Shown one piece after another: positions 26,625 through 54,167 of a stretch of DNA of 64,000 nucleotides. The first letter of the stretch is position 1; every line of letters starts with the position of its first letter. Origin of the DNA: an uncultured virus (IMG/VR IMGVR_UViG_3300045391_004154) (Duplodnaviria; Heunggongvirae; Uroviricota; Caudoviricetes); IMG/VR virus record IMGVR_UViG_3300045391_004154; one strand, 5' to 3'. The position numbers and the translations under genes were made by a program. The notes beneath the pieces were generated by a model. That model worked only from the letters and a program-made list of their open reading frames with translations, ran no database searches and was not told the origin of the DNA.

Positions 26625-27240
26625 CTTCGCCCTCCTCTCCTTCATAATCGCTATTCATCTGGCCGTGCTTGGCGACGGCGCAGCGCGGCGGCCCGAGCTC
26701 GTCCAGCCACTTCCGGGTGGTGCGGACCGTGTAGCCACACTCGGGGCACTCGCACTTGATGAGCCGGGTACCCTGCTTCTTGCCCGGACCCTTGAGCTTG
26801 CTCAGCGAGCCGGCCGGGTAGTCGCCATTCTTCTTGATGAACTCCTTGGCGAAGGCGTTCATGATCTCACCATTGACGGTGGAGGTCATCTTGCCTGTCA
26901 GGCCGATCGCCAGGGCGATGCGTTTAAACGCTCCCTTGTGGCCGTTCTTGTTGCCGTCCACGGCGTGGCAGAGCTCGTGTGCCAGGGTGCCGATGATGTC
27001 GGTCGCATCCTTGCTGGAGGGCGAGACGAAAATCTCGCAGTGCTTGTCGGAGCTTGACTCCGGCGCCCAGCACTGGCCGGCGATCTTCTCGGCGCGGCCG
27101 TAACCGAAGCCAATGGACACCCGCGTGCTGGCCGGCACCTCAAAGCCGTGCTTCTCAAAGTGCTTGCGCATCGCCGCCAGGCAGTTTTCCAGCCAGGTCT
27201 GGCGGAGCATGCTGGGTGATTTTCTGACCAGGTTGTTCAT
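26617..27240 (-). CDS. SprT-like zinc metalloprotease
   Basis: GQCW, LAHELCH (HExxH), GHKGAFK..A..IGL, C-terminal CPECGY. Confidence 0.75.
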   Translation of the reverse strand: MNNLVRKSPSMLRQTWLENCLAAMRKHFEKHGFEVPASTRVSIGFGYGRAEKIAGQCWAPESSSDKHCEIFVSPSSKDATDIIGTLAHELCHAVDGNKNGHKGAFKRIALAIGLTGKMTSTVNGEIMNAFAKEFIKKNGDYPAGSLSKLKGPGKKQGTRLIKCECPECGYTVRTTRKWLDELGPPRCAVAKHGQMNSDYEGEEGEDE

Positions 27241-27473
27241 TTTATCCTCCTATTAATTTCAGCTACGCCACAATCACAGCTGCTAATACCATCGTCCTTA
27301 GCTTCTATCGCGCAAGTTCCTTTATGCGGAACCGTCTTTCCAGCCGCAGCGAAGTGGCGTGCCTGGTGACAGCTTTTACGCAGTCGTCTCCGACCAAAGC
27401 ATTTCCGTCCAGGAAGTGCTCCGCATAATGGGCACTCTACTTTCATGGCTTCATGTCTTTTCATATCAGCCAC
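27237..27473 (-). CDS. Zinc-finger protein (AT-rich codon usage)
   Basis: CPLCGA.PG.KC...H.AR. Confidence 0.55.
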   Translation of the reverse strand: MADMKRHEAMKVECPLCGALPGRKCFGRRRLRKSCHQARHFAAAGKTVPHKGTCAIEAKDDGISSCDCGVAEINRRIK

Positions 27474-29001: not shown

Positions 29002-29255
29002 TAGAGCTTCTCCTGCAGCTTGTTGCCGGTAATTTCCACAAGACCCAAACCGCCGGCCTCCCAAACGCGCCCGTTGTAGGAAATATGCGCGATCACCTTG
29101 CCCTCTCTAAGTACCACGCACATGCCAACATCGCGGCTGCCGAGGTCTCTATCTTCAATGAAGGCCAAGGTCTTTTTGGAGGCCTCCGCTAGGGTTTCCA
29201 CCTTGACCTTTTTGGTGGTCATGGCGCTGAAGTCTTCAAGATGAAGCGTAGCCAT
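29001..29255 (-). CDS. Hypothetical protein
   Basis: IAHISYNGRVW motif; ATG at 29255. Confidence 0.6.
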   Translation of the reverse strand: MATLHLEDFSAMTTKKVKVETLAEASKKTLAFIEDRDLGSRDVGMCVVLREGKVIAHISYNGRVWEAGGLGLVEITGNKLQEKL

Positions 29256-37237: not shown

Positions 37238-37434
37238 TTTTTCAACTCCACCTCAATCAGGTTGATGGGAATGCCGCTCAGGCTCGAGGCGGTACGCAGG
37301 CGATCCTGGGGCGCGCCGTCGCGACCGTCGCGCACGTAGGTCACGGCCGCGGCCAGCAGCCGCTCGCGCTGGCGCTTGAGGCCCTCCTGCATGTCGCCGT
37401 CGGGAAATTGATAGATGGCCTGCTCACCGCTCAT
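37234..37434 (-). CDS. Small hypothetical protein
   Basis: AAGGAG RBS, ATG at 37434. Confidence 0.45.
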   Translation of the reverse strand: MSGEQAIYQFPDGDMQEGLKRQRERLLAAAVTYVRDGRDGAPQDRLRTASSLSGIPINLIEVELKK

Positions 37435-38425
37435 TTTGATACTCCTTCGGTAATGGGGCGCAGTTCTCGCCGGGCAGCATCTTGCGATATTGGCGCCAGC
37501 CGTCGAAGTTGCCGTGCTGCCTGCGGTTGGCCCAGGCGGAGGATATGATTCCACTGGGATCAATCATGTAGTCGGGACGCGCCTGGTGCTCGGCCGGCGA
37601 CGCGTGGATGGGCTCCTCGGGATCGTAGAAGTCGGTGCCGGGAATGTTGAGCCGGGCATAGGTGCGCAGGTCCTCGCCCCAGGTGCTGCGCTTGCCGGTC
37701 TCAAAGCTGGTGGTGCTCACGCGGGCGCAGCGCGCCACCGAGGTCTTGATGATCCGTTCGCGCAGGGCCTCGAAGTTATAGGTGCCCTCCTCCAGCATCT
37801 CCACCTGCAACTTGGTCCAGTCCATTGGTCCGATATAGGGCAGGTGCCACTCCTCGTCGCTCAGGTGCTCCGGCTCGCTGTTCTTGATCGCCGGCCAGAT
37901 GGCATCGGCCAGCGCCTTGAACTCCGGCTGCGCCGCCCGATGCAGCCGCAGGCCAAAGAAGTTGTCCCAGTCCGTGGCGGTGATGATGCCGTGCACCCAT
38001 AGATACGGCTCCAGCACCCGGTTGGCAATCTGCTTGTGCAGGCCCAGCTTGGCCAGGCTCTCGGCCTGGATGGCGGCAAAACCGGCGGCGGCGCGCCACT
38101 GGCGCTTGGCCATCTCGCGATCCGTCACGGTAAAATATTGTCCGTCCGTATCCATCACCGTGTGCTTGCGCGCGGTATCATCCAGCTCCTCGGCCGCCTG
38201 CATGCCGGCCTGGTTCTTGCCCCAGAAGACTGGCATGGCCGGGTTGGTACGAACCTCCTCCAGCATCTTGGCGACGGGCACGGCGCGGCTGCTGCGATAG
38301 TTGCGGCTCAGCGCGCGATGCGTGTTGATCTCCGCCAGGATGAAGCGGTGCGCGGTGACCTCTACCGAGGTAATCCGCTTGCCAGCCGGTGAGATGCTGT
38401 CGCAGACGACGTCGGCGCGAATCAT
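37424..38425 (-). CDS. thyX: Flavin-dependent thymidylate synthase
   Basis: RFILAE..THR..SRN..SSRAVP, HKQIANR.LEP, FF.LR.H..AQPE, SVARCARVS, HASP.EH. Confidence 0.85.
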   Translation of the reverse strand: MIRADVVCDSISPAGKRITSVEVTAHRFILAEINTHRALSRNYRSSRAVPVAKMLEEVRTNPAMPVFWGKNQAGMQAAEELDDTARKHTVMDTDGQYFTVTDREMAKRQWRAAAGFAAIQAESLAKLGLHKQIANRVLEPYLWVHGIITATDWDNFFGLRLHRAAQPEFKALADAIWPAIKNSEPEHLSDEEWHLPYIGPMDWTKLQVEMLEEGTYNFEALRERIIKTSVARCARVSTTSFETGKRSTWGEDLRTYARLNIPGTDFYDPEEPIHASPAEHQARPDYMIDPSGIISSAWANRRQHGNFDGWRQYRKMLPGENCAPLPKEYQNER

Positions 38426-38928: not shown

Positions 38929-39471
38929 CTATAGTCGGCTCTTGATGAATATATTACCGCCAAACTTCGCTTGGGCTCGGCGCATGCGGGCAGCGTCTTC
39001 TGGGTGCAAACCCAACAGCAAACTTGGAAACCATTTTTGCTCAAATGGCTTGCCGCTTGGTTTGTAGAAGGTAAGCCGGTGATCTGGAAACCAGATGGCA
39101 GCGCTCTTTTCCATGATGAGCTGCGTGGCCGCGGTCTCGGTGGCGCGGCCGTTGAGCAGTGCAATTCCACTATTCTGCTCCACGAACTTCCTGGCCCACT
39201 GCAGCACGCCGCGATAGGGCGGGTTCATGAATACCCGATCGCGCGGACGCCACGGATAGTCCAGCCCATTTAGCACTGCCGGATAATAAAAGCCCTTCGC
39301 CGTCTTTCGCACGCTACCATCGGTCAGCATCAACCGGGCCGTGCGCCACGGCATCTTCGGCGGGCAGCACGGGTCAAGATCAAACGGGCCCAGCAGCTTC
39401 ACCAGCGCTGGGTCGGTGAGGTAGGTATTGGACCAGTTCTTTTGATCGGAATAGGGCGTGGCATCAGCCAT
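38929..39471 (-). CDS. Phage DNA N6-adenine methyltransferase-like protein
   Basis: LGPFDLDPC, NGL...W, VFMNPPY, GIALL..R..ET, RLTFY; ATG at 39471. Confidence 0.75.
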   Translation of the reverse strand: MADATPYSDQKNWSNTYLTDPALVKLLGPFDLDPCCPPKMPWRTARLMLTDGSVRKTAKGFYYPAVLNGLDYPWRPRDRVFMNPPYRGVLQWARKFVEQNSGIALLNGRATETAATQLIMEKSAAIWFPDHRLTFYKPSGKPFEQKWFPSLLLGLHPEDAARMRRAQAKFGGNIFIKSRL

Positions 39472-39928
39472 TTGTAATGTGCTCCCAGGTCCGGCGCGTC
39501 GGGAGAATGTCACCGTGCCGCGGCTTAAGCCACCGCCCCCTGCTCTCGGCATCGTGCGCGTAGGGCTCCGAAAATACGATCCGCAGGCAGCCGGTGTTTA
39601 GGAGCGCCTTGACGCAATCGAGGCAGGGGGAGTGCGTGACATAGCAGGTGTGGATCAACCGCACGTCGGGGCAGCGGAGCAGCGCGTTGATCTCGGCGTG
39701 AATGGCCTCGCAGGCTTGCAGGTTCTTTCCACTCGGGGCGTTGCGGCCGGCGCATGGAAAGATATCACAATGGGCCTGGCCACTCGCCGGCCCGTTGTAG
39801 CCGGAGGAGATGGGATAGCCGTCCGCGTCCATCAGCAGGCAGCCGACCTGGCGCCGGCCGCAGGTGCCGCGGCGCGCCCAGGCCGCGGCGATCGCCAGGC
39901 CCGTTTCGTCTAGGGTTGCGCGGCTCAT
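39464..39928 (-). CDS. dCMP deaminase
   Basis: TC.RRQVG, GYNG, IHAEINAL, THSPCLDC. Confidence 0.88.
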   Translation of the reverse strand: MSRATLDETGLAIAAAWARRGTCGRRQVGCLLMDADGYPISSGYNGPASGQAHCDIFPCAGRNAPSGKNLQACEAIHAEINALLRCPDVRLIHTCYVTHSPCLDCVKALLNTGCLRIVFSEPYAHDAESRGRWLKPRHGDILPTRRTWEHITNG

Positions 39929-40803
39929 CCGAACAACTCCCCGAGGAAGTGCGCCGACTGCAGCGACCATTGGCCGCGGGCGCAGGCCCAGAGGTGCGCG
40001 ATGAGGTCATCGCTGGTCTGGAACTCGGCGAGGTTGAGCGAGCGCATGACCTTTTCACTCGCCTCGTTTAAACACGCTTGTGCGCCGTCGCTGTCCACCT
40101 GATAGAGGTGCTGCGAGCCGGCGGTGAGGGTGAGGTAGCCGAGCTCCAGCTCGCGCAGCGCCGCGAGAGTGGTCTTCTGCTCGCCCAGCAATAGCTCAGC
40201 ATTTTGGGAGCTCAGGATTTTGCTGGCCTGGCCGCGCAGCTCCAGCGCCACGACGGCCGCCGCCATGGAGAAGTTGAAGATGTCGTAGACCCAGCCGGTC
40301 CAGATGTCGGAGCTGCGCATGGTGGCAACGCAGTGCAGCTTGCCGCCCCGGATGAGGAACTGCCAGGAGAGCGTGCAGGGCGTGTCCTTGCTCGGCCGCG
40401 GCTGCTCGCGCCAGATGTTCACGACGGCCTGACGAGAGGCGGGATCGCGCACGAGGGTATCCACCACGAAGGAGAGCTGGTCCACGAACTTGGGCCCGTA
40501 GGCCCCGAAGTAGCGCCGGCCGTCATCGCTCAAATCCTTGATGGCCTTGGCGTAGGGCGCGATGGTTGAGACGCGGTTGTCGCCGGACAAAATCCAGGCG
40601 GCCTCGGCGCACATGAACTTGTAGCCGAGCTTTCGGCCCGGAGAGAGTACCACAGGGTTGCTCATGTCGATTGTGGTCTGATAGGCGACCAGCTCCCGGT
40701 TCGCCCGGCCGCGCCAGGTGGCGCCAGCGGACATGGGAGAAACACTCACGCCACTGTGGAGCAAATCCATGAGGGCGCGTTTCCAAACCAGGGTGGTGCT
40801 CAT
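39925..40803 (-). CDS. Thymidylate synthase-fold enzyme, probably dCMP-specific (methyl- or hydroxymethyltransferase)
   Basis: GAYG, SRQAV, KDTPCT, QF.IR, MRSSD.W.G..YD.F, GSQHLY; ATG at 40803. Confidence 0.8.
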   Translation of the reverse strand: MSTTLVWKRALMDLLHSGVSVSPMSAGATWRGRANRELVAYQTTIDMSNPVVLSPGRKLGYKFMCAEAAWILSGDNRVSTIAPYAKAIKDLSDDGRRYFGAYGPKFVDQLSFVVDTLVRDPASRQAVVNIWREQPRPSKDTPCTLSWQFLIRGGKLHCVATMRSSDIWTGWVYDIFNFSMAAAVVALELRGQASKILSSQNAELLLGEQKTTLAALRELELGYLTLTAGSQHLYQVDSDGAQACLNEASEKVMRSLNLAEFQTSDDLIAHLWACARGQWSLQSAHFLGELFG

Positions 40804-41810
40804 ATTTTCAATGCCTCTTGCAGTAGGGTTCGATATTTTTCGGGATGCTGGGCCTGGAAGCGGCGGGCCCATTGGGGATGCGGAATGCTTGCCGCGTTGG
40901 GAAAGCTCAGCTCCTCCACCCGCCGCGCCGCGATCCCGCCCAGCGCGATCACGCGCGTGGTGGCGGAGAGGTGATCGCGCAGAAAGCGCAGCCAGTCGTG
41001 GCCGATGGCGTTGGTCCACAGTGCCTGGTCCTCGCGGAATTTGAGCTTATGCAATTGCTTGTTGAAATAGGTCGCCGAGCTCATCTCGTCGTTCCACAGG
41101 AACGGCGCGGCCCGGTTGCAGGCCCGTGGGCTCAGCTGCTCGCCCACGAACAGGTAGCGGGGATCGCGCGGGTTGCCGGTGAGGTTGGGCAGGTCGGTGG
41201 CGAAGGTTTCGCCGGCGTGGCGGCGCAGGGCGTAGACCCGGCCCACGATGGTATCCATGGCGATGTCCAGGAGCTTGGCCGATATGCCGGCAATCTCGAA
41301 GTCGTACACCAGCACGTCATCGCGCAGCGGATAGTCCTGAAACTGGGTAAGCTGGTTGTAATACCACTTGCCGTCGGCCGCCAGGTTGCCGCTGGCCAGA
41401 TCGAGATAGCGTTGCGCCACCATCTCCATGCGAGCAAACTTCTCCACCCGGGTGCGCTTCAGCTCCTCGAAGTGCTTCATGTGACCGGCAAAGTCGCGCC
41501 GGACGCACAGCACCGTCACGGCGCCGTAGCGCAGCAGGGCGCGATCCAGGCACCTGGCGCCCAGATCGTAGGCTGGCCCGTCGCGGAAGGTGTCGCCGTA
41601 TATCTGCTCGGAGAGCCAGAGCCGGTCAATGATGACCAGCTGCTTCTGACTGCGCTTGATTGCCAGATCAACCGTCGCCAAATGCCGCTTCCAGATATCC
41701 GGCCACAGGCCATTGTGAATGTAAAAGGCGTCATAGCGCTTCACGAGCGCGCGGGCCAGCGTAGTCTTGCCCGTGCCGTCGGCGCCCTCCAGGATAATAA
41801 TGCCCTTCAA
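40800..41810 (-). CDS. dNMP kinase fused to a uracil-DNA glycosylase-like domain
   Basis: LEGADGTGKTT, IDR..LSE.IYG; then LFVGE, WTNA, VIALG..A, HP. Confidence 0.75.
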   Translation of the reverse strand: MKGIIILEGADGTGKTTLARALVKRYDAFYIHNGLWPDIWKRHLATVDLAIKRSQKQLVIIDRLWLSEQIYGDTFRDGPAYDLGARCLDRALLRYGAVTVLCVRRDFAGHMKHFEELKRTRVEKFARMEMVAQRYLDLASGNLAADGKWYYNQLTQFQDYPLRDDVLVYDFEIAGISAKLLDIAMDTIVGRVYALRRHAGETFATDLPNLTGNPRDPRYLFVGEQLSPRACNRAAPFLWNDEMSSATYFNKQLHKLKFREDQALWTNAIGHDWLRFLRDHLSATTRVIALGGIAARRVEELSFPNAASIPHPQWARRFQAQHPEKYRTLLQEALKI

Positions 41811-41811
41811 T

Positions 41812-41967
41812 TCAATCTCCCTGCGATAGCTTGCGTTTAAACAGCATCGCCTTGCCGCTCGGGTAGAGCGCGCAAAACTCCCAGGTGGGGTCGAGGTGCT
41901 TCCAGAACACGTCGTCGGGCCCGGGAATAACCACGAACTCCGCCACCAGATATTCCCAGCGGTCCAT
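41812..41967 (-). CDS. Small protein (DUF4177-like)
   Basis: 52 codons: MDRWEY...WEF...LFKR; below the ORF-track cutoff. Confidence 0.45.
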   Translation of the reverse strand: MDRWEYLVAEFVVIPGPDDVFWKHLDPTWEFCALYPSGKAMLFKRKLSQGD

Positions 41968-41972
41968 GATTG

Positions 41973-42161
41973 CTATTCCTTCGGCCCAATCAGGTTCAAG
42001 CTCAGCTTGACCCCCTCGGGCGCGCCGTCCACCTTGGCAAAGCCGCTGGTGCTGGCGATCATCCGCGACTTACCGGTGCCGCTCAGCGGCGCGGCCTTCA
42101 CCTGCTCGGCGGTGCACGGAATGCGCACCACCACTTCACCGTTTTCATACGAGATTTTCAT
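41973..42161 (-). CDS. Small hypothetical protein
   Basis: S.TGKS..IAST.G motif; GGAG RBS. Confidence 0.6.
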   Translation of the reverse strand: MKISYENGEVVVRIPCTAEQVKAAPLSGTGKSRMIASTSGFAKVDGAPEGVKLSLNLIGPKE

Positions 42162-42185
42162 TTGGTTCTCCCAGCTCTGTTTCGA

Positions 42186-42230
42186 AACTAAACCCTAGTC
42201 TCTCGGGTAAACAAAAGTAAACACTGTTTA
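42186..42230 (-). promoter_or_regulatory. Leftward promoter-like element
   Basis: Minus strand GTTTACTTTTGTTTA (shared with the 29.9 kb element), 18-nt spacer, TAGGGT. Confidence 0.5.
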
Positions 42231-42713
42231 TTCGCCGATCCGGAAGCGCTTGGCGTGCTGCTCCAGGATGGGCGCGTGGTTCGGCGGCACGAAGTCCTTT
42301 GGTTTCACCACGTCCAGGCTATGCCCGCGAGTCGATCGCGGATCACCCGCGGACACAGCCCGCTCCTTGCTCATGTTGGCGCGCTGCACCTCGGCGAAGA
42401 CCTCGTTGAGTGGAATACCCAGCATGTGCGCGGTGCCATCAGTGACATACTTCAAGTCGGCCAATGCGTCAGCGGCCTTCTCCAGGTCCTTGCCGTCATC
42501 GGGATATTCGTTGAGGTAATCCTGAGCCCGACTGATGGCATCGGCCGCGTTGCTGTAGCCACAGGCAAGCACCAGCTCCGAGAGCTCCTCCATCAGGAAT
42601 TTTATTCTAAAGCAGATGGTGCTCTCGTCGGGAAACCCGGGTGGCGTGCTCTCGGCCACGGGCAGGTCAAACTTGCGGTGGAACTCGCCCACCAGGTTGA
42701 AGGTATCGGTCAT
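42228..42713 (-). CDS. MazG/PRA-PH-like NTP pyrophosphohydrolase
   Basis: V.EFH.KF, R...L.EEL.EL, ADALADL.YV..G, F.EV.RANMSK, KP..F..P. Confidence 0.82.
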   Translation of the reverse strand: MTDTFNLVGEFHRKFDLPVAESTPPGFPDESTICFRIKFLMEELSELVLACGYSNAADAISRAQDYLNEYPDDGKDLEKAADALADLKYVTDGTAHMLGIPLNEVFAEVQRANMSKERAVSAGDPRSTRGHSLDVVKPKDFVPPNHAPILEQHAKRFRIGE

Positions 42714-42716
42714 GCT

Positions 42717-43244
42717 CTATCTCCGTCTAATTATGTTGATAATTTCCGCCTCACTGATGGGGCGATAGTCGGCGTAGTCGCAGTCCACTCCGACGTCCAG
42801 GAAGGTGCAGAGCTCCTGGCGCGGCGGCTTGCCCTTGCCGCCGTGATGATGGCCGTGCAGCACCAGGCCATTAGCCATCGGGTCGTGCAGGTGGAGTCGG
42901 CGCGGGTCGTGGATCAGGTTGACCTTCCAGCCATTTGAGAAGCAAATGACGGAGTAATCCTCCACGCTGGCCCAGCCCCTGGCCTTGTAGGTATCGCGAT
43001 GATCGTGGTTGCCCTTGCGCAGATGCTTGGTGCCATGCAGCTCCACCAGGATGCACTCGAGCTCGGGCCGGCGAAAGTATAGCGCCACGTCTCCCAGCAC
43101 GAACACCTCGTCCTCCGGCCGCACGGTGTCGTTCCAGCGGCAAATCAGCTGCTCGTGCATGTGGGCCAGGTCGCGAAACGGCCGCTCGCAATAGTCAATG
43201 ATCTTGTCGTGGCCGAAGTGGAGATCGGAGGTGAAGTATCTCAT
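42717..43244 (-). CDS. Calcineurin-like metallophosphoesterase
   Basis: TSDLHFGH, LGD, GNHD, LHGHHH, DVGVD. Confidence 0.85.
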   Translation of the reverse strand: MRYFTSDLHFGHDKIIDYCERPFRDLAHMHEQLICRWNDTVRPEDEVFVLGDVALYFRRPELECILVELHGTKHLRKGNHDHRDTYKARGWASVEDYSVICFSNGWKVNLIHDPRRLHLHDPMANGLVLHGHHHGGKGKPPRQELCTFLDVGVDCDYADYRPISEAEIINIIRRR

Positions 43245-43582
43245 TTCTCACCGTGCGTCACGTTCCGCGGGATATCCTCCAGAAGGTATTCACCCTCCAG
43301 CGCCGCCAGATCGCCGACGGCGTAGAAGGCCGCGCCGAGCTCGCGATAGCCCTCCACCGAATAACCAATCAGCATGTAGAACTGGTTCAGCTCGGCCTCG
43401 GTAAACTCGCCTTCGTGATAGCGCTTGACGATCTCGTTGAGGTCCAGCCTCTTGGGGCCGGTGCCTCTAAGGTCCAGCAGCGCGGTGACAATCCGGTTTT
43501 CCTGAAACCGCGGCTTGTTATCCGGGCCCAGGATAACGGGCTGCATCGGCAGCCCATTCATCGGTTCAAGCAGTCTCTTCAT
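43241..43582 (-). CDS. Hypothetical protein
   Basis: PMQP, RFQEN.IV, QF..LIGYSV.GY.EL. Confidence 0.6.
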   Translation of the reverse strand: MKRLLEPMNGLPMQPVILGPDNKPRFQENRIVTALLDLRGTGPKRLDLNEIVKRYHEGEFTEAELNQFYMLIGYSVEGYRELGAAFYAVGDLAALEGEYLLEDIPRNVTHGEK

Positions 43583-45080
43583 CGGCTTCCTCCTCCATCT
43601 GCGCCTCAATGGACTTCGGCACGGCGAACGGCAGGAGCTCGGCCGGGAATTTCCGTATCTCCGGCACGGCATCCTTGCCGCGCAACAGCTTGAGGTTCTT
43701 GCGCTGCGTCGCCACATCGTTCTTGCTCACCAGGCTCTCCGGCCAGTGATGCTTGATGATAGCCACCAGCTGGTCGGCGGTGAAGCGGTCCAGGGATATC
43801 AGCTCCTGGAGGTAGCGCATGCGGCCCTGCTTGCGATCGGGCTCGGGTATCGGCGCGCCCACGAGCAGGTTCGCCACGGGCACCTCCACCCGCCGCTTGC
43901 CACCCACCCCCTGACTCTTGGCCCGCGGCGCGCCCTCAAAGCGGGCGGCCGGAATGTGCTGGACGAGCTCGCGAGCAGGGGGGAGCTCGTGAACGTAGGA
44001 ATGACCCTCCGCGGGAGGCTCGCGCAATTCCACGTGGAAGACGCCAGGCCGCTCGGGCTTGGTCCCGGTGCGAATGGCGTTGGCCACCACGCCGCCCAGC
44101 CAGGAGCCACACGGCGGGCAGACGCCGCGCGCGATGAGAGAGAAGGCCGCGTTGGGAGTGGTGGCGGCGAACTCGTAGTCCGGCGGAAAGCCGCAGAGGG
44201 CTGCGCCCTCATTGACGGTAACAAAGCGCTTTTCCGTCGGATGAATGAGGGCGTAGCCCACGAAGGCATCGGCCGGTCGGTCAACCGGCAGGCGGCGATG
44301 GCCGAAGCTGGGCCGGCCGATAATCTGGCCCTGCTCGCCGCGCTTCCACTGGTCCTGCGGCACGAAGCGCTCCCAATAGTCGCGCACCTTCTCGCCCGGC
44401 TCCATTTCGAAATAGGTATTCTGCAGCCACTTGGCAACGAGCGGTTCGATCTTCACCGTCCAGTCCAGCCTGGTGGGCGTAACCTCCTGGAGGCATTCCA
44501 GCGCGGTCTTGGGTGGCGCCCAGTTGGGCAGCGGCCAGCCGATGTTGACCTTGGAGCAAACCATGAAGAAGCGCTTGCGGCTCTGTGGCACACCGTGCCA
44601 CTTGGTGTCATGGAGCACGTAATAGACGTTGTACCCGAGCTCCAGGGCCTTCTTCTCGAGCTCGCGCAGCACCTCCTGGCCCTTGCCATAGGCCTGCGTC
44701 ACGCTTTCGGTGGCCCAGACGGTCGGGCGCAGCTTCTCCAGCAGGCCGAAGTGCCGCACGGTACACTGCACGCGCGGATCGGTCCGCCACTTGTCGGCGC
44801 CGCGCGTCTTGGTGTAGCCGGCCACCGACCAGGCGGCGCAGGGTGGATTGCCGTAGATGAAATCGAGTTCTTGGAACTCGGGTTCATCTACGGGCCACTC
44901 TGAATTCGGATAATGAATGGGCAGGTCCGGGTAGTTCTTCTGCACGGTTGCCACCCCGTAGTCACTCTCCTCGAAATGGGCGATGACGTCGAAGTGGTCG
45001 CGCACCCCGATGGAGAAGCCACCGGCGAAGACGTTGGCGGCGAGGGCGCGGAGCTTGGGCTGAGTTTTCTTTTTGGTCAC
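43566..45080 (-). CDS. C5-cytosine DNA methyltransferase-fold enzyme with divergent motifs I, VI and X and an extra C-terminal domain
   Basis: FAGGFSIG, GNPPC, ESV, GVPQSRKR, RF.TV.E.A.L.GFP, IARGVCPP. Confidence 0.85.
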   Translation of the reverse strand: MTKKKTQPKLRALAANVFAGGFSIGVRDHFDVIAHFEESDYGVATVQKNYPDLPIHYPNSEWPVDEPEFQELDFIYGNPPCAAWSVAGYTKTRGADKWRTDPRVQCTVRHFGLLEKLRPTVWATESVTQAYGKGQEVLRELEKKALELGYNVYYVLHDTKWHGVPQSRKRFFMVCSKVNIGWPLPNWAPPKTALECLQEVTPTRLDWTVKIEPLVAKWLQNTYFEMEPGEKVRDYWERFVPQDQWKRGEQGQIIGRPSFGHRRLPVDRPADAFVGYALIHPTEKRFVTVNEGAALCGFPPDYEFAATTPNAAFSLIARGVCPPCGSWLGGVVANAIRTGTKPERPGVFHVELREPPAEGHSYVHELPPARELVQHIPAARFEGAPRAKSQGVGGKRRVEVPVANLLVGAPIPEPDRKQGRMRYLQELISLDRFTADQLVAIIKHHWPESLVSKNDVATQRKNLKLLRGKDAVPEIRKFPAELLPFAVPKSIEAQMEEEADEETA

Positions 45081-45104
45081 GGGTATTCCTTGGCTGGTTG
45101 AGAG

Positions 45105-45476
45105 TTAGCGACGACGATAGAGGCCCTTGGCCGGTGAGACAATGAGCTTATAGATATTGTTCATGAGGGACATCTGCGGGCTGCAGTTGCTTTCCTTGAA
45201 GTTGTTCTCCTTCAAGAAGGTCTTGACCTGCTTGAGGTTGAATTCGGTACCGCTGGGCATCTGCTGCACCCAGGCTCGGACGGCCTCGGTGATGGGAGAG
45301 CCCTTTGACTGGGTAATTACCCGCTTCTTGGGCGGCATAACGGCGGTCGTGATGGGACCATTACCGACGGTAGTTACCTGCAGGTTGCTGACCTCCTTGG
45401 TCAGCACCTCCAGGACGGTGGTAAGCCGGTTCTGCGGAATGTCGAATGAGACGTGGAACATGCTTTGAACTTTCAT
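45105..45476 (-). CDS. Hypothetical protein, possible winged helix
   Basis: AAGGAG RBS; C-terminal ...SPAKGLYR. Confidence 0.55.
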   Translation of the reverse strand: MKVQSMFHVSFDIPQNRLTTVLEVLTKEVSNLQVTTVGNGPITTAVMPPKKRVITQSKGSPITEAVRAWVQQMPSGTEFNLKQVKTFLKENNFKESNCSPQMSLMNNIYKLIVSPAKGLYRRR

Positions 45477-45501
45477 GACGGTTCTCCTTTGGCTCTGTTA
45501 A

Positions 45502-45723
45502 TTATCTTTTGGCGCGGCACTTCGGAACTGGGCCATACCAGACAAACATGTTGAGGTCGTTCCAGCTATCATCAGAGCCGAACTCGTAGATTTTATCGCG
45601 GCTCTTATCACCGTTGGTGTAGACCAGGAGCGGGACAATATCCGGGCTATGCGTTTGACGGCCGTAATAAACGCCATCTTCGGTCGGTGCCGGATTGATT
45701 TTGCGTCGCAGGACTCGGCTCAT
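45502..45723 (-). CDS. Small hypothetical protein
   Basis: PTEDG.YY...WYGP.P motif. Confidence 0.5.
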   Translation of the reverse strand: MSRVLRRKINPAPTEDGVYYGRQTHSPDIVPLLVYTNGDKSRDKIYEFGSDDSWNDLNMFVWYGPVPKCRAKR

Positions 45724-46421
45724 TTCTTCTTGCCCTTCTTCTTGGGCTTTTCAGCCGGCGCTGGCTCCGCCTTCACTACGGGCTTGGCGTCCTTCTCGGG
45801 CCAGGGCGGCACGTCGCCGCGGCCGAAGCGCGCCTGGCGGTCCTCCACGCTCATCTCCATGAGGATATTGTAGTTGTACTTGACGTCGGACTTCTTGGTG
45901 GTGCGGCCGGGCCAATTGCTCAGCACGATCTCCACCAGGCGCTCGGGCGTGTAGCTGCCCGTCATCCAGAGGCGCTGCATAAGCTTGCCGGAGCCCTCGT
46001 TCTGACCGGGCTTCTCGCCCTCGCCGGGAACGTAGACCTTCTCCACCTTGGCCGCGTTTAAACGCTCTGCGGCCGCGGCGCGCTGGGCCTTCTGCTCGGG
46101 GCTCAGCTCGGGCTCGGGCACGGGAAAGCCGAGCAGCTTCATGGCGAGCCGGTAGGTCGCCGAGTTGCGATCGTACTCCTCCGCCGTTCGCGCCAGCCGC
46201 ACCGCCACCTCCTGGTAGTTCCAGGCCGGCAGCAGGAGCTCCACGGGCTTGAGCCGATCCCAGATGGCGATGGGGCTCTTATCATAGGAGCAGTCGGCCG
46301 GTGACAAGAGCGTCACCCACTTTTGGCCGCGCTCCACCACGAGCAGCCGGCGCTTGCCGGCGCCGAAGGTTGGGATTTCATCCTCCAGGTGGACTTCCCA
46401 ATAGGTGATGTCGTCGCTCAT
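45720..46421 (-). CDS. Early protein carrying the shared ~50-aa domain
   Basis: GGAGG RBS; ...YTPERLVEIVLSNWPGRTTKKSDV...; basic tail. Confidence 0.65.
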   Translation of the reverse strand: MSDDITYWEVHLEDEIPTFGAGKRRLLVVERGQKWVTLLSPADCSYDKSPIAIWDRLKPVELLLPAWNYQEVAVRLARTAEEYDRNSATYRLAMKLLGFPVPEPELSPEQKAQRAAAAERLNAAKVEKVYVPGEGEKPGQNEGSGKLMQRLWMTGSYTPERLVEIVLSNWPGRTTKKSDVKYNYNILMEMSVEDRQARFGRGDVPPWPEKDAKPVVKAEPAPAEKPKKKGKKK

Positions 46422-46739: not shown

Positions 46740-47441
46740 TTATTCGGCGGCCGGCAGCTTCTTGCCGTCGTTGCGCAGCTTCTGGCGGTTCCAGCTGACG
46801 TCGCTGGCCTTGGCGGAGCTGTCGGGGTAGTGCTTCTTGACCAGATCAAGAATGGCGGCGGTCGTGGCATTCTTGCCGCCCTTCATGAGCAGCGAGCGAA
46901 TGTAGCAGCCGCAGGTCATGTTGGCCTTCGGCGCCGAGGTGCTCAGCTCCTCAAAGAGCGGGGCCGCGACGCGGGGCTTGCGCTCGCCGGCCTTCTTGGC
47001 CGACTTCTTGACTGCAGGCTTCTTGGACTTCTTGGACTTCGTGGCCATCTGGCCCTCCGTTGGTTGGTCCGTCCCCTCCGAGGGGCCGGCGTTGATGGCG
47101 GCCGGGTTGGTATCCTGCTGATCCGTGGCCGTCGGCTTCGGGTCAAAGGGTTCTTCGGGCTGCTGCCCGTACTTGGCATTCAGCGCGGCGAACACCCGGC
47201 GCTGACCGTCTTGCTTGGTGGCGAACTTTGAGACATGCTTTTTCTCATCATCCGTCAGGCGATTGAACAACACGGCGAGATTGGGTCCCGAATAGCTGTT
47301 CAAATCCTCCGCCTCAATTACCACGACCTGAGTGGGCTGACCAGTGCCTGCCAAATATTGGCGAGCGGCCTCCCCGTGCGGGTGCGTGGTGATCAAAAGG
47401 TCCCTGAACAGGACCCCATGTGCAAGGGCGTATATCGTCAT
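46740..47441 (-). CDS. Early protein carrying the shared ~50-aa domain
   Basis: GGAGGAG RBS, ATG at 47441; Lys-rich linker; ...TTAAILDLVKKHYPDSSAKASDVSW... Confidence 0.65.
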   Translation of the reverse strand: MTIYALAHGVLFRDLLITTHPHGEAARQYLAGTGQPTQVVVIEAEDLNSYSGPNLAVLFNRLTDDEKKHVSKFATKQDGQRRVFAALNAKYGQQPEEPFDPKPTATDQQDTNPAAINAGPSEGTDQPTEGQMATKSKKSKKPAVKKSAKKAGERKPRVAAPLFEELSTSAPKANMTCGCYIRSLLMKGGKNATTAAILDLVKKHYPDSSAKASDVSWNRQKLRNDGKKLPAAE

Positions 47442-47564
47442 TTCTCCTCCGTGGCTCTGTTTACCATCTAAAGCGTTGCGAAGCAACACCTTAGATGGTA
47501 AGCCCAACTGGTCGGACGGAGCGGGGAATGCTTAACCGCCAGCTGGGCTCCCACTCACCGCGCC

Positions 47565-48216: not shown

Positions 48217-48250
48217 GACTAAACCATGGCTCTGAACATCTGTAAACCCC
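48217..48250 (-). promoter_or_regulatory. Leftward early promoter-like element
   Basis: Minus strand GGGGTTTACAGATGTTCAGAGCCATGGTTTAGTC with AT-rich upstream sequence. Confidence 0.65.
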
Positions 48251-48289: not shown

Positions 48290-49753
48290 TTAAAGGGGAA
48301 ACCCGTAGGCGGTCTTCGGGGCGACCAGATATAAGGTCTCCGAGGCCCGGGTGAGCCCGACGTAGAACACCCGGTGCTCGCTGTCCGGGTCCAGCCGATA
48401 GCCCCGCTGGGTCCGATAGGTGAGGTCCGTGGAGAGCAGGACGTTCTCCGCCTCGGCACCCTTCGCCCCGTGAATGGTCTCGATCCTCACGCGCGGCTCG
48501 CCGTCCAGCTTCTCGCCGCGGCGCCGGCAGGCCAGGTAGTATTCCCGATCCTCGAGGGGCAGCCGAATGAGAGCGTCGTGCCAGATGGGCGTGCAGTCCA
48601 TCTTCAACTCCGCGGCCGTATAGGTGCTCGCCTCCTTCAGCTCGCGCGTCACGCCGCAGAAGCGCAGCACCTCGGATACGTCGCTCGCCTCCACGCGCTT
48701 GCCGGCGCGAAGCGCCTCATAGGATTTGATGGCGATGATGTGCGCCGGCTTGACGCTCGGCTCACCCTTGAGCCGATACACAACCCCCTGCTCGCGCGCC
48801 ATCTGCGCCAGCGGGTTGAGCTGGGCGCGCGTCCGGGCGAGCAGGAGCCACTTGCCAGTGCTCAGGTCCACCTCCTCCGGCCGGTTGATCCACTCCACCC
48901 GGCCGGCGCGATCCTGGCTCCGCCACTCCTTGGCGTAGCGACGCTCAACCCGCGAGGCCACCGATTCCGCTAAGTCAAAAATTGACTTAGGCAGTCGGTG
49001 GGACAGGGGGAGAATGCGGCGCTGGAATGGCAGATTGAGGAAATGCTCCTCGGCGGCGCCGGCCCAGCGGTGAATGGATTGCAGGTCGTCGCCGGCATAA
49101 TAGACGTCATCGGCATCGGCGAAGGCCTTGCGCGCCACGTCGTATTGCGCCAGGGTGAAGTCCTGGGCCTCATCGAGAATGGCGAGCTTGACCGGCGCCG
49201 GCGGGACGTGCGCGTGCGCATAGGCCGTGAGCATGTCGGTGAAGTCCATCAGGTTCCAGTCGCGCTTATACGATCGGTAGGTGTCGGAGAAGCGCTTGAG
49301 CCGGAACCAATCCACGTCGCCGCCATGATCCTGCCACGCGTTTTCCAGGCCGCGCTTGGTGGTGCGCGCCAGGTGATCGATTGTGAGGAGCTCGTCGGCG
49401 TTGCGACGCGTGGCCGGCGAGTCCAGCATCGGGTTGAGGTCGTTGATGAGCTCGCCGGTGGCCGCGGAGAGCTCACCGAGGTGCTCCTCGCTCAGCACGT
49501 CGCGCGAGGTTAGGCCCAGCTCGCGGAACGCCAGGCTGTGGAGCGTGCGGAAGTAGGGCAGGTCGCGCTCGCTGAGGTTGAAGCGCTTGGTGGCGCGGTC
49601 CTTGGCCTCCTGGACGGCCGCACGGGTGAAGGAGACAAACGCGATGGAGGACGGCTGCAGCCCTTCTTCCATGGCCTGCTCCATGATCCCGAGCAGCTCG
49701 GTCGTCTTGCCGGCGCCGGGTCCACCCAGGATGAGGGTCTGGTTCTGGGTCAT
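48290..49753 (-). CDS. UvrD-like SF1 helicase (replication module)
   Basis: GGPGAGKTT, SFTR.A, FRTLHS, DEAQD, AGDD.QSI..WAGA, TIHGAKGAE, YVGLTRA. Confidence 0.88.
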   Translation of the reverse strand: MTQNQTLILGGPGAGKTTELLGIMEQAMEEGLQPSSIAFVSFTRAAVQEAKDRATKRFNLSERDLPYFRTLHSLAFRELGLTSRDVLSEEHLGELSAATGELINDLNPMLDSPATRRNADELLTIDHLARTTKRGLENAWQDHGGDVDWFRLKRFSDTYRSYKRDWNLMDFTDMLTAYAHAHVPPAPVKLAILDEAQDFTLAQYDVARKAFADADDVYYAGDDLQSIHRWAGAAEEHFLNLPFQRRILPLSHRLPKSIFDLAESVASRVERRYAKEWRSQDRAGRVEWINRPEEVDLSTGKWLLLARTRAQLNPLAQMAREQGVVYRLKGEPSVKPAHIIAIKSYEALRAGKRVEASDVSEVLRFCGVTRELKEASTYTAAELKMDCTPIWHDALIRLPLEDREYYLACRRRGEKLDGEPRVRIETIHGAKGAEAENVLLSTDLTYRTQRGYRLDPDSEHRVFYVGLTRASETLYLVAPKTAYGFPL

Positions 49754-51158: not shown

Positions 51159-51746
51159 TCAGCGGCCCGGCTCATTTATCACCGCCACGGTGGTGGTCAA
51201 TAGTTTGAAGTCGCTCTGCAGCTTGTCCATGGCTTTGGTAATGGGCTCATGAAGCTCCAGCATCTTAACTTGCAGCTGGGTCAGCCGCTCCTGAATCGCC
51301 TCGGCCTCGGTCTTCTGGTAGCGGATGCGGTCGGTGATCTTCTGCAGGGCCACGTTGAGGTCTTTGACATGGAAGATACCCTCGGCATGCTTCCATTCCT
51401 TGTAGCCCTCGTTCTCGCCGACCAGGTAGATGGGCTTGCCGTGCGCCCAGGCGTCACCGATCTCGAAGATGGAGGTGTTGAGCGCGTCCTCCGGCTCGGC
51501 GTAGCTCAGCATCACGTCCGAGCGGATCATGTCGTCGTGATTATCCCGCATCCAGAAGCGCGCGGGCCTGGCCTGCTCGGCCGCGATGTCGCGCACGATC
51601 GTCCAGCGCGCGGTGAAGTAGAGCCGCTCCCAGTGCTGGCGCAGCTCCAGGAGCTTGGCCGCGTGAATGCGCTTGCTCGTGATGTAGACCGAGACGAACT
51701 TTCCCGGCGGATACTCCAGGCGATTGACGGGTTGGCTATTGCTCAT
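51159..51746 (-). CDS. Nucleoside 2-deoxyribosyltransferase-like protein
   Basis: VYITSK, DMIRSDVML, FEIG.A.A.GKPIYLV. Confidence 0.65.
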   Translation of the reverse strand: MSNSQPVNRLEYPPGKFVSVYITSKRIHAAKLLELRQHWERLYFTARWTIVRDIAAEQARPARFWMRDNHDDMIRSDVMLSYAEPEDALNTSIFEIGDAWAHGKPIYLVGENEGYKEWKHAEGIFHVKDLNVALQKITDRIRYQKTEAEAIQERLTQLQVKMLELHEPITKAMDKLQSDFKLLTTTVAVINEPGR

Positions 51747-52146: not shown

Positions 52147-52550
52147 AGTGAGCTCCGGTTCGGCAGCACGCTCGGCGGATCGTAGGGCAGCGCGTAGTAG
52201 CCCTTGCCCCACAGCGTGGCGATGAAGCGATCGGTGCCGTAAACGCCGCGCAGCTTGGCGCGCAGCTTGGAGATGTAGACGTCAATGCTCTTGACGTCGG
52301 GCCAGTCCGGCTCGGCCTTGCCCTGACAGATGGCCGCGTACAGGCCGCCATCCTTCTTCACCAGGCGGCCCTCCGCGCGCAGGAGTGCGCCGGCCACCGC
52401 ACCCTCGTGTCCCGTCAGGATGACGCTGAGCCCGCCGCCAAGCAGCACGCAGAGCTCCTCATCGTAGACCCAGCCGCCCCAATCCAGCAGCCGCGGAATA
52501 TCCAATGACCCACTGCAGTGCGGGCAAAATCGCATTGCTGGTTGCCCCAT
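52143..52550 (-). CDS. CtrA-like winged-helix protein (no receiver domain)
   Basis: LTGHE, PDVKSIDVYISKLRAKL, IATLWGKGY. Confidence 0.75.
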   Translation of the reverse strand: MGQPAMRFCPHCSGSLDIPRLLDWGGWVYDEELCVLLGGGLSVILTGHEGAVAGALLRAEGRLVKKDGGLYAAICQGKAEPDWPDVKSIDVYISKLRAKLRGVYGTDRFIATLWGKGYYALPYDPPSVLPNRSSL

Positions 52551-54136
52551 TACATTGCCTCCGGCTTATTCACGGTGGGCTGCTTGAACTCCTCGGTCTG
52601 CTTCGAGAAGGCCGGCAGCACCCACAGGTTGACAATCTTACCCTTGATGGTTCGCACCTCGCTGATGGCGCGGCGGCGGTGCAGGAATTTCCAGATGGCC
52701 CGCTCATCGATCCCCGACACGCGGTGCTGCTGGAGATACTGGAGGAAGTCGGACGACTGGAAGTAAACCAAGCCGCCACTCTCATCCGTGTATGGCTTGC
52801 CCATTAATACCTCGTCCAGCTCCTTGGCCGTGACCTTGCCGGTGCAGAAGCGGTGCAGGAAGCTCCACCACTGGCCCTCGCGCGTCGCGTCCTCGGGAAC
52901 GTCCACCTCCTCCGCATTGTCCATCAGCTCCTGGACGAGCTCCATCCATTTCGTCGGCTTCATGGGACGCGGCCAGAAGCTCGTCGCCTCGATCACGGCC
53001 GCCGCGAATTTCAGCTGGTTCATGAAGCTGGGAGTATCAATCTCCAGGCGACGATCATTGACCATGATTATCCAGGTCACGGGATCGGTCTTGAGCTTGA
53101 CGATATCGCCGAAGGTGATGTTGGTGGTATCGGAGAGCGGTACCTTTTCCTTCTTGGCCTTGGTGATCCCGAAGGCGCACTTGGCGCAGGCCTTCTTGTC
53201 GCACAGCTCCTTGATCGGCGACTGCTCGCACAGGTAGAAATAGTCGCGCTTGGCAATCGACTTGCCGACCCCCTGCACCTCGCTGGCCGAGAGTGGATTT
53301 TCCAGCAGCGCGTTGAGCTTGGGCAGATGGTCCCAGAACTTTTCCACGCCCCAGCGCGCCTTGGCGTAGCGCGCCAGATTGAACATCATGTTGTTGTCCC
53401 AGTCGCCGAACTTCTTCTCGGCGAAACCGCGGATAATGCAGGGGGGAGCGCCGAACAGCAGGTCATCGGAATTTTCGGTGACGGCGCCGTTGGTGTGCTT
53501 CACGGGCAGTGGATTGACGATGATCGCCGAGAGCTCGGCCGGCGCGATGGCGGTTTTCTCCGCCAGCTTCAGGAAGTCCTCGGGGGTCAGCGCGTCGCCG
53601 GTCTCGGGGTCCAGCGCGTAGCGGTTGGAAAACTCGCCGCCGGCGTACGGCATGTTGATCCAGTTGCCGGTGCCCTCCTCATCGAGGGTATCCTGCTTGG
53701 GGAATATCTCAACGCCGGCATGGCCGAGCACCTCGGCCCAGCGCGTCAGCTTGGCGCGCACCAGCTTGGCCGGCGCCGGCTCGCTCAGGAACAGATAGAG
53801 ATGGGCGCCGCCCGACTTGGTGCGGCAGACAATGAGCGGAAGGTTGAGAGCCTGGACGAGGGCGTTGAGTGCCTTCAGGTCCAGATTATATTCGTCGATG
53901 TCGATCGCGCCGAAGTAGCAGAGGCTCTGCTCGTTGATCGGCACAACGCCGATGGCGTAGGTGCCGGCCAGGTGGGTTTCCCACAGCGCGGCCGTATAGG
54001 GCTTGTGAACGGTCTTGCGCTTGCCGGTGAACTTGCCCTTGTCGTCGATCGTGAGGCCCGTACCCACGGCATAGGTGCCGTGGCTCTTGAGGAGCCCCGC
54101 GAAACGTTCATAAAACTGTGCGGCAAGCGATGTCAT
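52550..54136 (-). CDS. AEP-superfamily primase (PrimPol-like)
   Basis: GAIDIDEY, CRTKSGGAHLYLF, EIFPKQ, GNWINMPY, APPC. Confidence 0.8.
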   Translation of the reverse strand: MTSLAAQFYERFAGLLKSHGTYAVGTGLTIDDKGKFTGKRKTVHKPYTAALWETHLAGTYAIGVVPINEQSLCYFGAIDIDEYNLDLKALNALVQALNLPLIVCRTKSGGAHLYLFLSEPAPAKLVRAKLTRWAEVLGHAGVEIFPKQDTLDEEGTGNWINMPYAGGEFSNRYALDPETGDALTPEDFLKLAEKTAIAPAELSAIIVNPLPVKHTNGAVTENSDDLLFGAPPCIIRGFAEKKFGDWDNNMMFNLARYAKARWGVEKFWDHLPKLNALLENPLSASEVQGVGKSIAKRDYFYLCEQSPIKELCDKKACAKCAFGITKAKKEKVPLSDTTNITFGDIVKLKTDPVTWIIMVNDRRLEIDTPSFMNQLKFAAAVIEATSFWPRPMKPTKWMELVQELMDNAEEVDVPEDATREGQWWSFLHRFCTGKVTAKELDEVLMGKPYTDESGGLVYFQSSDFLQYLQQHRVSGIDERAIWKFLHRRRAISEVRTIKGKIVNLWVLPAFSKQTEEFKQPTVNKPEAM

Positions 54137-54167
54137 ACCCAACCTATGTTATTCTTGTGAAAGCAGA

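Follow-up and report, generated by a model that had tools for sequence, protein, structure and literature searches.

In the pre-replicative 5-hydroxymethylcytosine (5hmC) pathway of phage T4, the enzymes involved are the dCTPase gp56, the deoxycytidine monophosphate (dCMP) hydroxymethylase gp42, the deoxynucleoside monophosphate (dNMP) kinase gp1 and the dCMP deaminase cd. A predicted pathway of this kind, accompanied by a homolog of the C5-cytosine DNA methyltransferases (hereafter the transferase), is encoded on a stretch of 64,000 nucleotides from an uncultured virus of the class Caudoviricetes (IMG/VR record IMGVR_UViG_3300045391_004154; the whole stretch is called the window below), and the relation between these two elements is considered here. 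Thymidylate synthase (TS), PRA-PH and dCMP deaminase domains have been reported to co-occur in cytosine-modified viral contigs, where a 5hmC-decorating carbamoyltransferase adjoins this domain set (MetaGPA; Yang et al., eLife 2021, PMC8670742). A stand-alone post-replicative system acting on plain cytosine was published in December 2025, namely CmoX of Synechococcus phage S-B43 (PDB 8YF3), a cytosine C5-carboxymethyltransferase dependent on carboxy-S-adenosylmethionine (carboxy-SAM) (Yang et al., Nat Commun 2025, PMC12783734). In the crystal structure R350 of SpCmoX binds the carboxylate of carboxy-SAM, the donor being this compound and not SAM, and SpCmoX alone was reported to produce 5-carboxymethylcytosine (5cxmC) in E. 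coli, the CmoA of the host being sufficient; the authors counted 4257 CmoA sequences for 5615 CmoX contigs, with the SPPC motif used as a filter (PMC12783734). Carboxymethyl transfer from carboxy-SAM has also been reported for enzymes in which the motif X Asn is changed to Lys, as in M.MpeI N374K and M.MedI N377K (PMC12015181). The word "thymidylate" is absent from the main text of the CmoX paper (PMC12783734), and in the literature searched no C5-methyltransferase homolog tied to a pre-replicative 5hmC pathway was found; searches for 5-methoxymethylcytosine, or for carboxy-SAM together with phage and cytosine, returned nothing beyond the CmoX paper.

Structural genes of the myovirus type are present in the window, as are PolA, a primase and helicases. 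Between 39.4 and 45.1 kb its minus strand encodes homologs of a C5-cytosine DNA methyltransferase and of TS, a MazG-type pyrophosphatase, a dCMP deaminase and a protein resembling dNMP kinases. A preliminary description of the window, made from the letters alone, had placed two C5-cytosine enzymes there; both are present on the minus strand, and family matches place the kinase, the MazG/PRA-PH protein and the dCMP deaminase beside them. The genes on which the argument turns are the following.

43566..45080, minus strand: Arg-type C5-cytosine transferase, 504 amino acids (PF00145, E 1.1e-23)
42228..42713, minus strand: MazG/PRA-PH-type nucleoside triphosphate pyrophosphohydrolase (PF01503, E 3.9e-14; phrog_671, E 9e-26)
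40800..41810, minus strand: protein with a P-loop dNMP-kinase-like domain and a uracil-DNA glycosylase (UDG) family 4/UdgX-like domain (weak Pfam matches to Thymidylate_kin and UDG)
39925..40806, minus strand: TS homolog with a dCMP hydroxymethylase signature, 293 amino acids from MSTTLVW (PF00303, E 3e-18)
39464..39970, minus strand: dCMP deaminase (PF00383, E 3.3e-15; phrog_174, E 4e-35)
37424..38425, minus strand: ThyX, flavin-dependent thymidylate synthase (PF02511, E 9.7e-7; phrog_85, E 4.6e-78)

Among the viral loci compared, the link between transferase and module runs one way: the transferase needs a 5hmC-type module, and the module does not need the transferase. The reading that we hold most likely, with a rough probability of 0.38, is that the transferase would modify the phage's own 5hmC-containing DNA in a second step. 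Such DNA is the probable substrate because 5hmC-type TS modules are the only setting in which the subfamily was met, a phage CmoA never being seen with it, and the second step is favoured also because the subfamily comes without CmoA or CmoY and because the transferase occurs fused to module partners. The two C5-cytosine enzymes would then be two layers of one system that modifies phage DNA. The functions of the first layer, which would precede replication and follow the logic of T4, are assigned from family membership and residue signatures: the MazG/PRA-PH protein, a candidate dCTPase by its place in the pathway and found in most related loci, would convert dCTP to dCMP, the Asp-type TS homolog would form 5-hydroxymethyl-dCMP, the P-loop kinase would begin the conversion of this nucleotide to the triphosphate and the phage polymerase would incorporate 5hmC in place of cytosine; the dCMP deaminase and ThyX, the latter being the phage's own route to dTMP, would supply dTMP. 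In the second layer, after replication, the transferase would not behave as an ordinary site-specific methylase: the modified base would be flipped out and a carboxylate-bearing group transferred or exchanged at its 5-position, from host carboxy-SAM or another anionic donor held by an Arg, the product being a hypermodified cytosine. The Arg replaces the motif X Asn, and a basic residue at this position holds the carboxylate of carboxy-SAM in CmoX and in the M.MpeI and M.MedI variants. Hypermodifications of phage DNA decide escape from restriction, CRISPR and type IV defences and have also yielded tools for epigenome sequencing, and the association of the transferase with the 5hmC module hints at an undescribed second step in phage DNA modification. 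If true, the novelty would be either a cytosine derivative made from 5hmC, which would parallel for cytosine the hypermodification pathways of thymidine and bring into natural use a chemistry known only as a methyltransferase side reaction in vitro, or a replacement at the nucleotide level combined with a carboxy-SAM-dependent patch.

The first layer compares closely with T4 in that all four functional slots are filled, by a pyrophosphatase, an Asp-type TS, a P-loop kinase and a dCMP deaminase. It differs in having a pyrophosphatase of the MazG/PRA-PH type, a kinase with an added UDG-fold domain and a C5-methyltransferase homolog in the decorating slot; a glycosyltransferase was not detected in the window. 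In the MetaGPA modules, as reported, the decorator is a carbamoyltransferase acting on the hydroxyl group (PMC8670742), whereas here it would be a C5-methyltransferase homolog. The open reading frame (ORF) of the TS homolog as listed extends to 41019, its likely start being MSTTLVW, and its closest solved relative is MilA, a CMP hydroxymethylase (E 8.5e-20). Where TS reads FNIAS the protein reads VYDIFNF, so that the label of an Asp-type TS given to it earlier holds. In E. coli ThyA numbering, Asn177 to Asp has been described as the mark of a cytosine substrate, Leu143 to Asp or Glu as that of a hydroxymethyl instead of a methyl product, and Asp169 to Asn as that of 5-hydroxy-dCMP synthases of the RB69 gp48 type (Lee et al. 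2026, PMC13326640). The TS homolog of the window combines Cys146 and an Asp in place of Leu143 (KDTPC) with a retained Asp169 (MRSSD) and an Asp in place of Asn177 (VYD), and Asp143, Asp169 and Asp177 together with the catalytic Cys point to a predicted dCMP hydroxymethylase of the T4 gp42/MilA type. The combination of Asp or Glu at 143 with Asp169 and Asp177 is also present in 54 of the 55 TS neighbours of the transferase, the 55th ending before those columns. A 5-hydroxy-dCMP synthase was considered and ruled out, since Asp169 is retained by the window protein and by each of the 54 neighbours that could be aligned.

The neighbours just mentioned come from 65 viral loci that were fetched with a profile of 50 transferase homologs, through family-specific peptide patterns. 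A TS homolog lies within the fetched stretch in 55 of the 65, of the Asp type with the hydroxymethylase signature in 54 and cut off in one; most of the 10 loci without TS end within about 2 kb of the transferase, and one of them, L011, has a TS elsewhere in its record. When whole viral records with the transferase are taken, a TS homolog is present in 39 of 41, and in all 15 with a completeness of 90% or more; the two records without it are fragments (15% and 48% complete). The 19 transferase clusters defined at 50% identity give a similar picture, with a TS in the locus in 17, drawn from nine TS clusters and in varying gene order; in L006-L008 and L067, the TS stands upstream of the transferase and not downstream. 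The two genes thus do not assort independently, with a TS in 39/41 records, 15/15 near-complete ones and 17/19 clusters, and the condition on independent assortment under which the preliminary description would have been refuted did not come true. The apparent paradox of two C5-cytosine enzymes in one phage, which the preliminary description had raised, was correctly seen, the two genes being functionally tied. The converse sample was obtained with a TS profile, which gave 79 new loci (an 80th, L032, was already in the set), with at least 551 stretches confirmed. All 79 TS homologs are of the Asp type, and they are accompanied by the kinase in 72 loci, by MazG in 56, by the deaminase in 56 and by a class I methyltransferase, here called MT2, in 47, and by the transferase in 8 only.

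In the AlphaFold2 model of the transferase (pLDDT 89.8) a catalytic domain at about residues 1-345 is followed by a disordered linker and a C-terminal three-helix domain at about 415-470. The best folds in the PDB are MET1, M.HaeIII and DNMT1 (Foldseek E of about 1e-17 against MET1 and HaeIII), with 8yf3 at rank 16, and as modelled the protein has a genuine C5 DNA methyltransferase fold. Motif I reads FAGGF, the final Gly of the canonical loop being replaced by Phe, motif IV reads GNPPCAAWS and motif X reads IARGVCPP, for which the DNMT1 counterpart is IGNAV. When 129 homologs were laid on the family profile, the catalytic Cys, the Glu of the ENV motif and the R-x-R pair were found in all 129, and so was the change of the ENV Asn to Ser (ESV); the motif X Asn is replaced by Arg in 127, the Gln that follows Pro-Cys by Ala in 126, and NPPC is kept in 122. 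SAM-dependent methylases have Asn both in the Gly-Asn of motif X and in ENV. The target-recognition region, between motifs VIII and IX, is conserved throughout the family. A scan of 185,579 prokaryote genomes returned no relative, and on its sequences we read the family as a CmoX-like subfamily confined to phages; it was met in viral contigs alone and is widespread there. The transferase relative of locus L114 (IMG/VR 3300012929_000019) has a Lys in motif X (IGKAVMPA), as does the engineered M.MpeI N374K. The homologs P0079, P0123, P0124, P0126, P0127 and P0129 are interrupted by an intein that contains a LAGLIDADG endonuclease; in P0079 the residues after Pro-Cys depart from the family motif, which suggests an insertion at the catalytic Cys. 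The extra domains of homologs of 900-990 amino acids gave no Pfam match.

Several of these features are held in common with CmoX, which is likewise phage-encoded, has a C5-methyltransferase fold and carries an Arg (R350) at the position of M.HhaI Asn304 and a small residue in place of the Gln after the catalytic Pro-Cys. In a MAFFT alignment with the S-B43 protein the motif X Arg falls on R350 (ERVGRMVPP against LIARGVCPP). It has to be considered, therefore, that the transferase might be a CmoX-type carboxymethyltransferase that uses host carboxy-SAM on leftover plain cytosines, or in a short sequence context, as a second protective layer; incomplete replacement, early replication and repair patches are the proposed sources of such cytosines. 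The Arg and the lost Gln of the PCQ motif speak for this explanation, as does the invariance of all residues needed for chemistry on an unsubstituted C5-H (Cys, Glu and R-x-R, 129/129). In the engineered M.MpeI and M.MedI, which are laboratory mutants of CpG methylases with a plain-cytosine substrate, a basic motif X residue like that of the transferase gives carboxymethyl transfer (PMC12015181); moreover, SpCmoX makes 5cxmC from host carboxy-SAM, and a small load of substrate would spare the phage a CmoA of its own. The fusion of one homolog, P0075, to a family 4 UDG would fit a repair of C-to-U side reactions. Leftover cytosine would, however, leave unexplained the constant company of a 5hmC-type TS (15/15 near-complete records, 17/19 clusters), and equally why a carboxylate donor should be preferred to plain SAM for mopping up, when the Arg is kept in 127/129. 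The transferase reads NPPC and ESV in place of the SPPC and ENV of CmoX, and neither its sequence profile nor its fold brings it nearer to 8yf3 than to HaeIII or DNMT1 (the family profile gives E 3.7e-20 against 8yf3 and 1.2e-22 against HaeIII, and 8yf3 is the fold of rank 16). In CmoX systems CmoA is typical and a ligase frequent, neither being obligatory, whereas both were not found in the transferase records: CmoA (TIGR00740) is present in 0/42, including 0/15 near-complete ones, with a positive S-B43 control (E 2.5e-34), and a CmoY-type AMP-forming ligase (Asn-synthetase-like, PF00733) was seen above the cut-off in 0/40, again with a positive S-B43 control (E 4.4e-15). A single weak PF00733 match in these 40 records (E 9.4e-4) lay below the cut-off, and thus no CmoY-type ligase was found among them that could use a carboxyl handle. 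No Asp-type TS was found in S-B43, the CmoX prototype phage, and this, together with the missing CmoA and CmoY, counts against a bulk carboxy-SAM route on plain cytosine. On the whole the patching of residual cytosine is a serious rival account of the transferase, though a somewhat improbable one.

Further information comes from the proteins that travel with the module. In 9 of the 65 transferase loci MT2 either forms one protein with the transferase or is encoded immediately upstream of it, and MT2 is the commonest partner of the Asp-type TS modules (47/79), with an invariant N-terminal HRDY..HF.RW motif. It was seen in L012, L017-L019, L021, L027 and L062, and its standing as the commonest 5hmC-module partner extends to two cultured phages, Stenotrophomonas phage AXL3 (L076, 3650-4474) and Pseudoxanthomonas phage PW916 (L069, 934-1758). 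By its profile MT2 stands nearest to UbiG, Hen1 and juvenile-hormone acid O-methyltransferases, with CmoA/YecO matched only at E 0.003; a role of MT2 as a CmoA analogue was considered and rejected, given this profile and the silence of TIGR00740 in the MT2-bearing AXL3 and PW916. The window ORFs that were scanned yielded no class I methyltransferase. Other homologs of the transferase are fused to PRA-PH (P0064), to the family 4 UDG mentioned above (P0075) and to the helical domain of a 5-hydroxymethyldeoxyuridine DNA kinase (P0096); the last, PF18723, was found only in this distant homolog, and the window proteins scanned gave no match to it, the domain being a mark of thymidine-type hypermodification (5-HMUDK plus aGPT-Pplase). 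In AXL3 and PW916 the same order of MazG, kinase with UDG-like domain, Asp-type TS and dCMP deaminase is observed as in the window, their TS being 42-44% identical to that of the window (42% for AXL3, which also has ThyX), and a neighbouring protein shares the small C-terminal domain of the window transferase. Unlike the window, both carry MT2 at the head of the operon, in the place of the transferase, and no C5-methyltransferase domain was found in either genome. The DNA of AXL3 has been reported to resist 35 of 37 restriction enzymes, all of them with G/C in their sites, and the only two enzymes that cut it do so at the A/T-only sites AATT and TTAA (PMC7504290). This resistance was measured for AXL3, which has MT2 in place of the transferase.

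The small C-terminal domain, of about 50 amino acids, recurs in three proteins of the window, at the C-terminus of the transferase (43671-43838) and in the C-terminal parts of the products of 45720-46421 and 46740-47507. It is also found in AXL3 gp32 and in a PW916 ORF upstream of MT2, and thus travels with the module in distant phages. The model shows three helices (residues 420-467), the consensus resembles GSGxxIxRLxxxG...V....F/W.....SDV.WN/Y..KL, and Pfam gave no match except a weak DUF6465 on the 46740-47507 protein; the domain may bind DNA or a partner protein.

The same evidence bears on a second explanation, which extends one proposed in the preliminary description (alkylation or covalent trapping of unmodified host DNA): the transferase would modify, deaminate or trap unmodified cytosine of the host or of a competitor, 5hmC-containing phage DNA being immune, so as to shut off the host or scavenge nucleotides. 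The strict dependence on a cytosine-replacing module is what an enzyme that would otherwise hit the phage's own DNA should require, the conservation of the target-recognition region points to a specificity that is low or common to all members, and UDG-fold domains travel along that could turn C-to-U events into strand breaks. MT2, though, accompanies the 5hmC module even in loci without the transferase, and we infer for this reason that its role concerns the modified nucleotide or DNA of the phage itself, so that its fusion or adjacency to the transferase is hard to square with a host target. A whole host genome would also demand much donor, with CmoA not found (0/42), no nuclease partner was identified, and in marine transferase-only loci the kinase is short and the UDG domain missing. 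An action on host DNA is accordingly regarded as quite unlikely.

The preliminary description had listed as a third alternative that TS and deaminase serve only to make dTMP, or, in a variant considered here, 5-hydroxymethyluracil, with the transferase modifying phage cytosine; to this may be added a plain SAM-dependent orphan methylase that forms 5-methylcytosine. The fold and motifs are those of a DNA C5 methyltransferase, and deaminase and TS homolog are closely linked (56/79 loci), as such an explanation would expect. It is disfavoured by the phage's own ThyX for dTMP, by the hydroxymethylase signature of all alignable, Asp-type TS partners and by the restriction pattern reported for AXL3, whose DNA is cut at AATT and TTAA and at none of 35 tested G/C-containing sites (PMC7504290). 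The Arg of motif X is also found in 127/129 homologs, and SpCmoX, which has such an Arg, is reported not to use SAM; the window shows no depletion of CG or GC, and, as the 185,579 prokaryote genomes yielded no close homolog, nothing connects the transferase with a restriction-modification system of a host. This explanation is held to be very unlikely.

A modification of 5hmC by the transferase in a second step, the reading preferred here, has in turn to be weighed against a number of points that speak against it. A base already substituted at the 5-position cannot take a group at C5 by the standard mechanism, and the retained Cys, Glu and Arg-x-Arg are what chemistry on an unsubstituted C5-H needs. 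To our knowledge the derivatisation of 5hmC by a C5-methyltransferase fold is known only as a side reaction in vitro. The Arg and the loss of the PCQ Gln are common to CmoX, which acts on plain cytosine, and the reported sufficiency of host CmoA for SpCmoX in E. coli leaves carboxy-SAM possible as donor where a phage CmoA is missing (PMC12783734). A complete replacement of cytosine in the transferase-bearing phages is a prediction, with indirect support from the restriction resistance of AXL3. The closest matches in 50,697 phage records (tblastn) are distant methylases only, of at most 26.6% identity, so that no cultured phage among them has a close homolog of the transferase. The sample of transferase loci was drawn by family-specific peptide patterns and is not independent, one cluster of many related marine phages accounting for 38 of the 65. 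Gene content, residue signatures and co-occurrence are observed, and it is from them that the chemistry, with its substrate, donor and product, is proposed. Of the ideas in the preliminary description, the action on host DNA and the hypermodification of 5hmC both survive, and the data lean to the latter or to a carboxymethyl transfer of the CmoX type, which had not been listed. In a more specific form of the 5hmC reading, the C5-methyltransferase fold would have been re-tooled for 5hmC, with the base flipped out, the Arg holding carboxy-SAM or the amino-carboxypropyl end of SAM, the group joined at the 5-hydroxymethyl group or exchanged for it, and an undescribed hypermodified cytosine as product; this is put forward tentatively, with a fair chance that is nevertheless below even. 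In relatives with a fused MT2, that domain could further methylate the hypermodified cytosine. That the transferase works by a mechanism outside all the readings given here is judged unlikely.

The kinase deserves some attention on account of its second domain. A P-loop domain from residue 1 to about 195 is followed by a UDG family 4/UdgX-like domain at about 205-336; in the AlphaFold2 model (pLDDT 85.8) the former matches thymidylate and nucleotide kinases and the latter UdgX and family 4 UDG (Foldseek, E of about 1e-3, probability 1.00), and at the level of sequence the kinase matched no PDB entry below E 0.35. The UDG-fold domain corresponds to window positions 40803-41198, has an invariant His311-Pro312 in an alignment of 19 homologs and was detected mostly in MT2-bearing loci. 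Many loci with the transferase only, including marine ones, encode a short kinase of about 190 amino acids that lacks it, and the kinase half also stands alone in podovirus HTVC200P. The possibility that the protein is a DNA-base kinase by virtue of its UDG-fold domain was found to be unsupported, the kinase half standing alone (about 190 amino acids) in many transferase loci.

In the order of transcription, the transferase gene is followed by a small ORF, a metallophosphoesterase, MazG/PRA-PH, a 62-amino-acid ORF and the P-loop kinase, and then by the TS homolog, the dCMP deaminase, a Dam-like N6-adenine methylase, an ORF of unassigned function and ThyX. The region from 39 to 46 kb has no relative at the DNA level in the 50,697 phage records (megablast). 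The remaining features of this region are as follows.

43241..43582, minus strand: small ORF of about 113 amino acids from MKRLLEP, variable among relatives
42717..43244, minus strand: metallophosphoesterase-like protein, 175 amino acids (phrog_547 phosphoesterase, E 8e-35)
42188..42212, minus strand: intergenic motif GTTTAC-N12-GGTTTAG, with a second copy at 48219-48247 on the same strand
41973..42161, minus strand: small ORF of 62 amino acids, conserved in the close relative L004
38929-39552, minus strand: Dam-like N6-adenine methylase

The small ORF at 43241..43582 and the 62-amino-acid ORF gave no match in Pfam or PHROG. The former was seen, among the fetched loci, in L003 alone, which comes from a record matching the window at 100% identity over 39000-46000 (IMG/VR record G001), and is missing from L004, the closest distinct relative. 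The metallophosphoesterase occurs in L003 and L004 only among the 65 transferase loci and in 0 of the 79 TS loci, and is outside the conserved core.

Two promoter-like sites had been proposed to divide these genes between transcription units. A sigma-70 consensus scan called neither of them; both intergenic gaps, however, carry the composite motif GTTTAC-N(12-16)-GGTTTAG(T), which may be a promoter element of the phage (2 matches, with 0.02 expected by chance), and since the motif is shared by both gaps the split into two units is plausible. Further occurrences of GGTTTAGT lie at 14952 and 15418.

Elsewhere in the window there are a SprT-like protein (26617-27240), two UvrD-like helicases (27466-29064 and 48290-49753), a weak nucleoside 2-deoxyribosyltransferase-like protein (51159-51746) and a primase that matches the AEP domain of the TOTE conflict system (52550-54142). 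With regard to composition, no site-specific depletion was found in the window for CG, GC, GCGC, GGCC or CCGG, and CTAG is low (0.36). Six-base palindromes with a GATC core are strongly avoided over the whole window (AGATCT 0 against 5.6 expected, GGATCC 0 against 9.0, TGATCA 4 against 20.1), GATC itself not being so (0.88), and this avoidance accompanies the phage-encoded Dam-like N6-adenine methylase.

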